From positions 6,769-70,768 of the forward strand of contig JAUSHJ010000040.1 of NCBI GenBank assembly GCA_030648615.1: a stretch of 64,000 nt of DNA, read 5' to 3'. Positions 9,655-23,869 of this stretch are shown here, one piece after another. Source of the stretch: Candidatus Micrarchaeota archaeon. Lineage in GTDB: Archaea > Micrarchaeota > Micrarchaeia > Anstonellales > Bilamarchaeaceae. Numbering within the stretch: the stretch's first letter is position 1; the number at the start of each line of letters is the position of its first letter. Position numbers and translations under genes: made by a program. The notes under the pieces were generated by a model. That model was not told where the DNA came from. It saw only the letters and a program-made list of their open reading frames with translations, and searched no databases.

Positions 9655-9715
9655 AATTTAATTTCTCCATTATGCTATAAATACCTTTCGATTTAAATCA
9701 AAATCAGGTGGAAAA

Positions 9716-10429
9716 ATGACAAAAACTATTTATCTCTATGACAGCTATGCAAAAGACTGTGACGCAATCGTACAGTTAATCGACGGCAAATTCATTATTC
9801 TCGATCAAACTGTTTTCTTTGCACGCGGAGGAGGTCAGCCTGGAGATACTGGGAAAATAGTTAGAGTAGGTGATAATGTTGAATTCACTGTTTTATCCGT
9901 AGGCAAGAAAGACGGAGTAATTGCTCATGAAGCAGACAAAGATGGTTTAGCTATTGGGGATAAAGTAAAATGTTCGATTAACTGGGATCGTCGCTATAGA
10001 CTAATGAGAATTCATACTGCTACTCACATATTAGCTGCAATAATGCACAAGGAAGAAGGTGTTTTGATTAGTGGAAATGAACTAGGGGAAGATAAGGCAA
10101 GAGTTGATTTTAACCTAGTGGACGTAACCAAGGAAAAAATTGAAGCGTACATAGTCAAGACGAACGATGCTCTTAAGAGAAATCTAGATATCAAAACCTA
10201 TTTCTTGCCAAGAGCAGAAGCACTGGCATTACCTGGAGCAGTAAAGCTTTTGGCTGCATTGCCACCTAACATAACTGAACTAAGAATTGTAGAAATTGGA
10301 GATGTAGACAGGCAAATTGACGGCGGTACTCACGTCAAAAATACATCAGAAGTTGGGGAAATTGAACTAATTAGGATAGATAATAAAGGGGCAAGTAATA
10401 GGCGGGTTTACTTTAAGTTGAAAGACTAG
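9716..10429 (+). CDS. alaXM: alanyl-tRNA editing protein AlaX-M
   Basis: GGGQPGDTG, HTATH, DGGTHV. Confidence 0.9.
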   Translation: MTKTIYLYDSYAKDCDAIVQLIDGKFIILDQTVFFARGGGQPGDTGKIVRVGDNVEFTVLSVGKKDGVIAHEADKDGLAIGDKVKCSINWDRRYRLMRIHTATHILAAIMHKEEGVLISGNELGEDKARVDFNLVDVTKEKIEAYIVKTNDALKRNLDIKTYFLPRAEALALPGAVKLLAALPPNITELRIVEIGDVDRQIDGGTHVKNTSEVGEIELIRIDNKGASNRRVYFKLKD

Positions 10430-10466
10430 TCAGTTATCCTGAGACAAGATATATCTAGTCTCAATC

Positions 10467-10542
10467 TATACAGAACCAGTGTCACGACAATTCGTGACAC
10501 TATTTGTCAACAATGTTGACAAACCAAAGTTGGTTCTGTATA
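10467..10542. repeat. hairpin (tatacagaacca/tggttctgtata) interrupted by a 48-bp two-hairpin module
   Basis: Inner gtgtcacga..tcgtgacac and tttgtcaaca..tgttgacaaa; AACCA duplicated at 10474 and 10522. Confidence 0.85.
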
Positions 10543-10586
10543 TAAACATTTCCTTACATCATAATATCCTCTAGGCTCCAAGTAAT

Positions 10587-10803
10587 AGCGGGGTAACGCA
10601 TTCTAAAACTTTTTAACATTTAGGGTGCGCCTCATGGGGAGCTTGGAGTTCCCGCTGGAAGTTGTATCTAGTATTTCTTATTGGATACATCTGGCAAAGC
10701 TCATAACCCAGTTGTGTCTTTTGATTAAAAGATGCAGGGCAAAGATCGATGGTTCAAATATTTGAACCACTTTTGGTTTGAGTTGGAATTCCATCCCCCG
10801 CTA
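10587..10803 (+). tRNA. initiator tRNA-Met(CAU) with four BHB introns (9/10, 30/31, 43/44, 59/60)
   Basis: Exons 10587-10595, 10636-10658, 10699-10711, 10743-10758, 10790-10803 give a 75-nt cloverleaf with A1-U72 and a GGG/CCC anticodon stem. Confidence 0.93.
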
Positions 10804-10834
10804 TTTTTATTTTTTTTGAGTCTAGAGTTCCCAA

Positions 10835-11053
10835 TTGTTCATCGTTATGAACAACACAATTTTCCGAAGTATCGGAAAATGTGCACATTGTTGCGTACAA
10901 CAATTGTGTGGGCGCAATTATTTTCTGCGGAAAATAATGCATTGTCGGCAGTGTCAAAAATGCCGACAAGTATTGACGCGTATAGCGTCAATGCACATTG
11001 ACAACACTTTGATTCATTGTCAATTGCGCATTGTTGCTCTGAGCAACAATTGC
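10835..11053. repeat. array of 8 contiguous short hairpins
   Basis: ttgttcat/atgaacaa, ttttccga/tcggaaaa, attgttg/caacaat, attattttc/gaaaataat, ttgtcggca/tgccgacaa, attgacgc/gcgtcaat, attgacaa/ttgtcaat, attgttgctc/gagcaacaat. Confidence 0.9.
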
Positions 11054-11094
11054 GTTTAGTCTCCGGTTTAGTGTTTCGAATTTTCTATCTAGTT

Positions 11095-12048
11095 CTAATT
11101 CACACTGCATCTAGAATTCGTACACGTGCTATTTCCAGAAATAACTGCACATGATAAAGTAGCCGAGTTTACATCGTTTCCTTGGCAGTAGTACTCTAAA
11201 ACTTTCGAGCTATCCACGCAAGTGTCCTGATAAAGAATTCCTGAGGCTACAACTGAACCTGCAATTTCTCTAGTTATTCCATCACTGTCAGTGCAACCAG
11301 TAGCATTCAAATTAGTAATACAAGCTCCATTTGTACAATGCGTGAGCGTAGGGCAGTTAACCAGATCATATGCTGAAGTATTTCCATTACAATAATATTC
11401 CGTTAATATGTTATTGGTGCATTTATCATCTGAGACGTCTAAGAATCCAGAATTATCATCTATTGTTACCTTACCAAATGTTGATATATTATATCCATCA
11501 CTATCAGTACAAGTAGTTTCTTTTCTTATGCATCTTCCATCATAACAATTAGTTTTTTCAGGGCATTCAGATATTGCACCATCTACCAGATTATCCTTGC
11601 AACTATACTCACGTATATTTTTGTTCCCGGTGCAAGAATCAGTTTTAGTATCTCCGTTCAATTCCACAGTTCCTTTCGTGAATAAGTCACTGTCATCACT
11701 ATCGGTACACGTGTTATTTTTCTTTGGGGTGCATTTACCGAAATAACACTGATACCCTTGTGGGCAATTTATTTTTTCTATTTGTACTAAAGATTCATTA
11801 CAATAATTTTCTTCCAAAGTTGTTATGCTGGTACAATGATCGGTAAACTTCTTATTTGCTAAAGTGACAAATCCTTCAGTGTATATATCTATTGCATTAC
11901 TTCCATTACAATAGTCTGCAGGTGTAGGAATTGTTTCTATCGTAGAGTTATTATTAGTTTTATTATCTAAATTTACTTTGTTTTTACTATTAGAAGTACA
12001 ACCAAACAATAAAACCAAAACTACCAGACACAGAAGAAATTTTTTCAT
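11095..12048 (-). CDS. Cys-rich repeat surface lipoprotein-like protein
   Basis: Lipobox-like LLFGC; four repeats of C-x-D/G-S-D/N...D-x-C...E-x-x-C...C...G-x-C. Confidence 0.8.
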   Translation of the reverse strand: MKKFLLCLVVLVLLFGCTSNSKNKVNLDNKTNNNSTIETIPTPADYCNGSNAIDIYTEGFVTLANKKFTDHCTSITTLEENYCNESLVQIEKINCPQGYQCYFGKCTPKKNNTCTDSDDSDLFTKGTVELNGDTKTDSCTGNKNIREYSCKDNLVDGAISECPEKTNCYDGRCIRKETTCTDSDGYNISTFGKVTIDDNSGFLDVSDDKCTNNILTEYYCNGNTSAYDLVNCPTLTHCTNGACITNLNATGCTDSDGITREIAGSVVASGILYQDTCVDSSKVLEYYCQGNDVNSATLSCAVISGNSTCTNSRCSVN

Positions 12049-13048: not shown

Positions 13049-13198
13049 GGGCTCGTAGCTCAGTACCGTTTGTATCAATTAATATACTCGGTTGAGTAAC
13101 AGCAGAGCACCCGCCTTGCACGCGGGGGGCCGAGGGTGCGAGAGCTTTGTCCTGGCGGACAAAATTAGCCAGCAAAGCCGTCTATCCCTCCGAGTCCA
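13049..13198 (+). tRNA. tRNA-Ala(UGC) with two introns (~16/17: 13065-13098; 59/60: 13143-13184)
   Basis: GGGCTCG/CGAGTCC acceptor with G3-U70; anticodon arm cccgc-cttgcac-gcggg; T stem gaggg/ccctc; BHB-like junctions. Confidence 0.88.
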
Positions 13199-23396: not shown

Positions 23397-23463
23397 TCAA
23401 ATCACCAAATATGCTACAACGATAATATATAAAAGAGTTACATAGCTAATTAGAATAAGGAAA

Positions 23464-23831
23464 GGGCCCGTAGCGCAGCTAAAGTTTTGAGTCTCGATTT
23501 CTGTGTTTCGAATTTTATTCATTCGAAACCAAAAGTAGAAAACTGAAAACTTCTGCTATGGACAGCGCGGCAGCCTTCTAAGAAATTTCTTTCGGTAATC
23601 TAAAGAAATTTCATAAAGAAAGAGGAAAGCTGTAGGTCATGGGTTCAAAACAGTCTTCAGTCTTGAAGTTTTGAGTCTAGTAAAATTATAATTACGAGAC
23701 GTGAAACAGGACAACCATAAATCGACAAGCTTGTTGCTTCGAGTGATAAGATGCTCAGTGTTCGAACAATCGAACACTCGGGAACATCGATTTATCGGGA
23801 ACTGGAGACAGTGTATTTCCCATCGGGCCCG
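23464..23831 (+). tRNA. tRNA-Arg(UCU) with three introns (17/17a: 23481-23558; 37/38: 23581-23627; 59/60: 23650-23817)
   Basis: GGGCCCG/CGGGCCC acceptor, A20, G73; BHB motifs at all three junctions. Confidence 0.92.
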
Positions 23832-23869
23832 ATTTATTTTCATGTAAATGATAATCAAAAGGTGGTAGT

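Follow-up and report, generated by a model that had tools for sequence, protein, structure and literature searches.

A probable initiator tRNA-Met gene with four bulge-helix-bulge introns in a groundwater member of the Micrarchaeota

We describe here an interrupted gene which is very probably the single initiator tRNA-Met (iMet) gene of a groundwater member of the Micrarchaeota (DPANN). It occupies positions 10587-10803 (+) of the window, the whole 64,000-nt stretch of DNA that was analysed, and appears to carry four bulge-helix-bulge (BHB) introns which would be excised by the splicing endonuclease EndA, the exons being joined by RtcB. On the strength of the sequence we give this reading a probability of about 0.9. 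In the scheme that we propose, transcription would generate a precursor of about 217 nt, presumably ending at a T tract directly downstream; an epsilon2-type EndA would cut both 3-nt bulges of each of the four motifs, RtcB would join the five exons and CCA would be added after ligation. If this is correct, the limit of three introns commonly cited for tRNA genes of archaea fails in DPANN too, and an essential, single-copy initiator tRNA can depend on eight endonuclease cuts and four ligations.

Gene structure, spliced product and copy number

The gene is composed of five colinear exons of 9, 23, 13, 16 and 14 nt separated by four insertions of 40, 40, 31 and 31 nt, all on the + strand. Exon 1 (10587..10595) supplies tRNA positions 1-9, that is the 5' acceptor strand together with nucleotides 8 and 9. 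It is followed at 9/10 by intron 1 (10596..10635, 40 nt), with a GGGG/CCTC central helix of 4 pairs, an 11-bp hairpin and the bulges TA|A and AT|G. Exon 2 (10636..10658), which is unique in the genome, covers positions 10-30 and includes the D arm, nucleotide 26 and nucleotides 27-30. Intron 2 (10659..10698, 40 nt) then interrupts the gene at 30/31 and combines a central helix, CGCT/GGCA, of 3 pairs and a C.A mismatch with a hairpin of 13 pairs and one mismatch. Exon 3 (10699..10711, positions 31-43) carries the anticodon loop CUCAUAA and the 3' strand of the anticodon stem, and intron 3 (10712..10742, 31 nt at 43/44) has 3 pairs and an A.C mismatch in its central helix, ACCC/GGGC, and a 10-bp hairpin. 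Exon 4 (10743..10758, positions 44-59) contributes the variable loop, the 5' strand of the T stem and the T loop to position 59. Intron 4 (10759..10789, 31 nt at 59/60) has a TTCA/TGGA central helix of 4 pairs and a 10-bp hairpin and forms a full hBHBh' structure, its outer helix being the 5-bp T stem. The end of the T loop, the 3' strands of the T and acceptor stems and the discriminator A are provided by exon 5 (10790..10803, positions 60-73), after which CCA is not encoded. The standard position numbers given for these introns assume a 10-nt D loop. Directly 3' of the discriminator lies a T-rich tract (10804..10817), likely an archaeal terminator; a similar T tract follows most other tRNA loci of the genome.

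Joining the exons yields a 75-nt product which ARAGORN identifies as tRNA-Met(CAT), in which 21 of the 21 cloverleaf pairs are formed and which RNAfold folds into a cloverleaf at -36.0 kcal/mol. Its G+C content is 58.7%, compared with 36% for the window. Archaeal initiators are recognized by a CAU anticodon, an A1-U72 pair and three consecutive G-C pairs (29-31/39-41) at the base of the anticodon stem. All of these are present in the spliced product, and the same features occur in all 48 orthologues described below. From unspliced DNA, by contrast with the spliced product, ARAGORN predicts no tRNA anywhere in the window and no Rfam family reaches its gathering score there. The first-pass annotation had proposed an initiator tRNA-Met gene split by four introns, none of them at the canonical 37/38 site, and had expected standard tools to miss it: its coordinates proved exact, the sites are 9/10, 30/31, 43/44 and 59/60, and neither ARAGORN nor Rfam cmscan recovers the unspliced gene.

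Two other classes of disrupted gene were considered and rejected. The pieces of a split or permuted tRNA come from different loci or in a changed order, whereas all five exons here follow one another on the same strand within 217 nt. Self-splicing introns of group I or II are discounted by the lack of a match at Rfam gathering score in the window and by the small size of the introns (31-40 nt).

The gene lies in a 665-nt gap between an AlaX-like gene (9716-10429, +) and an unassigned ORF in the other orientation (11095-12048, -), and the ORFs which overlap it show no family match. Arrays of short hairpins are found on both sides of it (10478-10523 and 10835-11050), with stems of 7-10 bp, many of which start with ATTG and end with CAAT. 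Genome-wide there are 44 clusters of at least four perfect hairpins, several of them beside tRNA genes or inside tRNA introns. A 7-nt unit (approximately GTCTYGA or its complement) also forms short tandem arrays (for example C8:32206-32276, C32:15495-15523 and C41:59330-59364), which are intergenic, downstream of tRNA genes or inside several tRNA introns, and a similar heptamer run is present within an iMet intron of a relative (L035).

The window corresponds to C65:6769-70768 of a 1.65-Mb genome in 76 contigs (G000) which is 89.75% complete. This incompleteness is one of the points in favour of a different explanation, in which the locus would be a decaying pseudogene invaded by four hairpin elements and a working iMet gene would reside in the unassembled tenth of the genome; another is the presence of dispersed hairpin arrays, one of whose 44 clusters lies directly downstream of the gene. 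We regard this explanation as very unlikely. The exons show no decay, as judged from the 21/21 pairs and from an identity of 65-71/75 with intact orthologues, and all four insertions are in exact BHB register. Nor is there a second iMet-like locus, interrupted or not, in the assembly: exons 2-5 occur once each, no other G+C-rich CAT anticodon arm was found, and when the spliced product was searched, with introns tolerated, against the two strands of the entire assembly, one locus scored at least 50, the iMet gene itself, with a score of 122. The absence of an intron-less iMet copy, which the first-pass annotation had wished to see confirmed, is borne out within the 89.75%-complete assembly. 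The pseudogene explanation is further weakened by the occupation of the same four sites in other genera, with covarying hairpins, and by the state of the remaining tRNA genes.

Introns in related genomes and in the tRNA set

The 11-nt motif of the anticodon exon is present in 57 of 61 sampled genomes of the family, while a reversed control gave about one match per ten genomes. Intron-tolerant alignment was used to check 70 loci around motif matches, and the 22 scoring below 85 were set aside as chance matches; the 48 remaining iMet orthologues come from 60 sampled family genomes, in five of which the true iMet gene is probably among matches outside the 70 loci. Eighteen of the 48 are uninterrupted and have 65-71 of 75 positions identical to the spliced product of the window gene, and four of these are matches to the Rfam tRNA family (56.8-61.8 bits). 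The others contain one (10), two (9), three (9) or four (2) introns. Both four-intron orthologues belong to other genera: one (L017, genome G057) has its introns at the same four sites as the window gene and the other (L029, genome G019) in the D loop and at 30/31, 43/44 and 59/60. In the 49 genes taken together, introns lie at 30/31 in 21 cases, at 59/60 in 18, at 43/44 in 13, at 9/10 in eight and within the D loop in five.

Of 66 distinct introns, 57 combine a central helix of three or more pairs with a hairpin of four or more, as against 1.2% of random sites, counts that are biased somewhat by the fact that orthologue intron boundaries were partly picked by BHB score. With ten cells per motif, 93, 88, 84 and 97% of the cells are paired at the four sites, a level reached by 0 of 500 shuffles. 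Double changes occur in 5-7 of the 10 columns at each site, many of them in hairpin columns, and one compensatory change, from C-G to T-A, falls in the 30/31 central helix; this covariation comes from related sequences whose boundaries were partly chosen by the motif.

Intron number varies even within genera (0, 1 and 4 in genus g15; 0-3 in genus g19), and introns at one site share end motifs across genera. This fits old introns which have been lost repeatedly and precisely; a repeated gain of introns may also be envisaged. The family represents a natural series of one gene with any number of introns from 0 to 4, the sites being fixed and the number differing even inside a genus, and thus makes intron gain and loss, as well as the substrate range of the epsilon2 enzyme, directly testable.

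The iMet gene is not alone in being interrupted. ARAGORN found 16 tRNAs in the raw genome, and Rfam identified 8 above its cut-off and 10 at E <=0.001, compared with 30-45 in five relatives. We took a census by an intron-tolerant scan with local realignment, using as references 40 compact tRNAs of a relative (G046). The census covers the identities represented among these references, which do not include elongator Met, Cys and a few others, and misses introns in the acceptor stem because introns were forbidden in the acceptor strands. It recovered 39 tRNA loci, of which 37 have insertions and two have none of 10 nt or more. ARAGORN accepts 35 of the 39 spliced products, one being of undetermined identity and three having an anticodon unlike that of the reference family. 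The raw count of 76 insertions includes some over-splitting and becomes about 1.8 per gene after partial curation. Interruption is thus the normal state of a tRNA gene in this genome, which argues against a pseudogene. In practice, most of such a tRNA set escapes the standard finders (16 are detected by ARAGORN and 8 by Rfam above its cut-off), so that an apparent lack of tRNAs in DPANN bins should not be taken for gene loss or incompleteness.

A second gene with four introns is that for tRNA-Ser(GGA) (C73:2068-2358, +). Its introns, of 43, 50, 17 and 98 nt, lie in the D loop, at sites resembling 30/31 and 37/38, and in the T loop. All have three or more central pairs, and the 83-nt spliced product is accepted by ARAGORN. 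Four introns are therefore the top of a heavily loaded tRNA set and not a singular occurrence. The tRNA-Val(GAC) gene (C32:51969-52157, -) was also considered as a four-intron gene but is not counted as one: its insertions of 40, 11, 28 and 38 nt leave a 4-nt micro-exon and a product which ARAGORN accepts, but three of the four form no BHB motif, by the rule given below, in any splicing order. Elsewhere in the window, tRNA-Ala(TGC) (13049-13198, +) has two introns, of 36 and 42 nt, and tRNA-Arg(TCT) (23463-23832, +) three, of 78, 47 and 168 nt; both are missed by ARAGORN and Rfam on raw DNA and accepted by ARAGORN after splicing.

Splicing motifs and enzymes

The rule that we applied to the motifs is the usual one of a helix, a 3-nt bulge, a 4-bp helix, a second 3-nt bulge and a helix, cleavage taking place behind the second base of the bulge. 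This rule is consistent with Fig. 1b of a bioRxiv preprint of 2026. All four iMet insertions are in exact register with it and the bulges are of 3 nt in each. The first-pass annotation had also attributed a 4-bp central helix to every intron, and this holds at 9/10 and 59/60, with one G.U pair each, but not at 30/31 and 43/44, where the helix is relaxed to 3 bp and an outer mismatch (C.A and A.C). The outer helix also varies from site to site: a single pair at 9/10, none at 30/31 and 43/44 and 5 bp at 59/60. Among 400,000 random genome sites tested with the same lengths, only 1, 3, 4 and 0 match the central-helix and hairpin values of introns 1-4, respectively.

For the 217-nt precursor the predicted minimum free energy is -82.4 kcal/mol (z = -5.5), a value equalled by none of 200 shuffles. 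Each motif formed alone lies 0-2.9 kcal/mol above this minimum, while forcing all four together gives -69.7 kcal/mol, or 12.7 above it. In the naked-RNA ensemble at 37 C, the probability of the central helix is 0.95 at 30/31 and 0.75 at 43/44, and 0.06 at most at 9/10 and 59/60; in precursor folds G4-G7 is contested by the acceptor stem. These calculations suggest that the 9/10 and 59/60 motifs would need to be captured by an enzyme or formed by refolding. They also carry a hint of order: if 30/31 is removed first, the probability of 43/44 drops to 0.07, and if 43/44 is removed first that of 30/31 stays at 0.98, which suggests that 43/44 would be spliced before 30/31. The ordered splicing proposed in the first-pass annotation remains, at this stage, such a thermodynamic hint.

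In intron 4 the 5' arm, ATTTGAACCA, is perfectly complementary to the adjoining upstream exon, TGGTTCAAAT (10750-10769), and so repeats it in inverted form, and the 3' arm resembles the same T-arm exon. Introns at 59/60 in several genera share this pattern. One may suspect from it that a local T-arm duplication gave rise to the 59/60 intron.

The EndA of this genome is a single polypeptide of 405 aa, with a Pfam N-terminal domain and two stretches of C-terminal domain, and aligns over essentially its full length with the ARMAN-2 enzyme (4FZ2, chain 4fz2_A; E 6e-136, residues 18-405 against 5-387). By its sequence it is an epsilon2-type splicing endonuclease, in line with the relaxed-specificity EndA called for in the first-pass annotation. 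The catalytic residues of the ARMAN-2 enzyme, Y236, H251 and K282, and the lysine of its specificity loop, K161 (Hirata 2012), align with Y249, H264, K295 and K174, and all four are invariant in 20 aligned relatives. An epsilon2 EndA is encoded in 41 of the 41 genomes searched. The ARMAN-2 enzyme is reported to cut relaxed motifs, including that of a T-loop intron (Fujishima 2011; Hirata 2012), and by analogy a homodimer with the same relaxed BHB cutting is predicted for the enzyme described here. RtcB is encoded once in the genome.

An alternative is that only some of the insertions are EndA introns and that either 30/31 and 43/44, or 9/10 and 59/60, need another route or an extra factor such as a non-catalytic EndA-like protein. 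A candidate for the latter exists. It is a 163-aa EndA-like protein (C50:16742-17230, -; locus L002:1465-1956) which is encoded in 60 of 61 family genomes, in some genera adjoining the epsilon EndA gene. This paralogue retains the Tyr (or His) and the Lys, and its catalytic His is replaced by Arg in 21 of 21 aligned sequences, within a GEDRT motif, so that it is probably non-catalytic; a predicted complex of epsilon EndA with it obtained a score of 0.12 (mark 0.32). The outer mismatches in two of the central helices and the low predicted occupancy at 9/10 and 59/60 would also agree with a partial role for EndA. We nevertheless find this division of labour hardly credible, given that each motif alone costs no more than 2.9 kcal/mol. 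To our knowledge, there is no other pathway for the removal of archaeal tRNA introns. Relaxed motifs are, in addition, among the substrates that published work assigns to epsilon2 and (alpha-beta)2 enzymes (Fujishima 2011; Hirata 2012; Kaneta 2018).

That the interruptions result from misassembly of a metagenome bin, as its 76 contigs might suggest, has a negligible probability: contigs from one groundwater DNA run, possibly the source sample and so not independent, contain 98% of the words sampled from 9700-11900 of the window, and in other genera, whose genomes were assembled independently, the same sites are interrupted, with two further four-intron genes among them. The runs found to contain the locus are four DNA runs from groundwater metagenomes, with no RNA run among them.

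A candidate intron in rtcB and comparison with known systems

Four BHB introns excised by EndA and exons joined by RtcB thus remain the preferred reading of the iMet gene, and the gene for the ligase adds a further element to it. The sole rtcB gene, which is located outside the window, is broken by a 32-nt insertion (C63:25117-25148, minus strand) with a GGTC/GACA central helix of 3/4 pairs, a 10-bp hairpin and 3-nt bulges. Only 7 of 400,000 random sites match these values, and the local MFE fold draws the motif. In the unspliced gene the frame stops four codons into the insertion; its removal restores the conserved frame ...PDGH-SGYGFPIGG..., as in the uninterrupted genes of G023 and G051. 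A relative from a neighbouring genus (G001) carries an insertion, also of 32 nt, in the identical position. We therefore consider the insertion to be a candidate pre-mRNA BHB intron, with the same relaxed anatomy as the tRNA introns. A screen for BHB motifs bridging two frames, both open for at least 90 codons, returned 578 candidates, mostly gene junctions.

We lean slightly towards the view that BHB splicing in this lineage extends past tRNA and closes on itself through rtcB. If the insertion is spliced, RtcB would be made only from an mRNA cut by EndA and sealed by pre-existing RtcB, and would be needed both for the five iMet exons and for some 70 other tRNA junctions. The result would be a self-dependent loop, cytoplasmically inherited, and a protein-coding BHB intron beyond crenarchaeal cbf5, which is the only case of an archaeal pre-mRNA BHB intron that we found in the literature. 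If it is not spliced, no ligase would be made, which would count against the splicing explanation of the iMet gene.

In a number of relatives (G002, G004, G008, G011, G021, G041, G043, G047, G052, G069 and others) the rtcB match is split at about profile position 50 within one open frame of 950-1200 aa. These look like intein insertions.

That archaeal tRNA genes have three introns at most, which the first-pass annotation had given as the usual figure, is indeed stated by Fujishima 2011 and in the tRNAscan-SE 2.0 paper. A bioRxiv preprint of October 2026 goes beyond this figure, with 2.2 insertions per gene in Asgard archaea and as many as five in a single gene, and the four introns of the iMet gene are less exceptional than assumed because of this. 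Four introns per tRNA gene is a record for DPANN and not for Archaea: in the literature searched, which did not extend to the supplements of Valentin-Alvarado 2024 and the 2026 preprint, where such genes may be listed, no archaeal tRNA gene with specifically four introns was found, and on tRNA introns of Micrarchaeota or DPANN only the ARMAN-2 and EndA papers. The epsilon2 type of enzyme is described by Kaneta 2018 as known only from ARMAN-1/-2 and Mancarchaeum, and the same study takes the incomplete tRNA sets of DPANN as a sign of disrupted genes that have gone unnoticed. According to Valentin-Alvarado 2024, 92-95% of the tRNA genes in three Asgard genomes are interrupted.

The closest known system is that of ARMAN-2 (Candidatus Micrarchaeum acidiphilum), which belongs to the same phylum, has the same three-unit endonuclease with its catalytic triad and specificity-loop lysine, and shares the use of non-canonical intron sites and relaxed BHB motifs, T loop included. 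It differs in degree: Fujishima 2011 gives 56% of ARMAN-2 tRNA genes as disrupted, with three introns at most, whereas here 37 of 39 are interrupted and both the iMet and the Ser(GGA) genes have four. The Thermoproteales (for example Pyrobaculum calidifontis) also have several non-canonical BHB introns per gene, which are missed by simple finders and need an EndA of broad specificity. However, these are hyperthermophilic Crenarchaeota with an (alpha-beta)2 EndA, for which the reported figures are 71 introns in 46 genes and a maximum of three in any one gene, in contrast to a groundwater DPANN archaeon of 36% G+C with four introns in at least two genes.

The Asgard archaea of the 2026 preprint resemble the genome described here in that nearly all tRNA genes are interrupted, with about two insertions per gene, many of them missed by standard annotation; BHB motifs are over-represented at the insertion boundaries, and insertions are seen to have been gained or lost repeatedly. 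They belong to another phylum, however, and have two-subunit EndA paralogues, and their figure of up to five insertions per gene comes from a motif-free census. Finally, the red alga Cyanidioschyzon merolae (Soma 2013) differs in that its genes are in a eukaryotic nucleus, have at most three introns and are often also permuted. Its BHB-type introns, up to three per gene, are likewise found in the D arm, the anticodon loop and the T loop, and in this organism the order of their removal has been shown by experiment.
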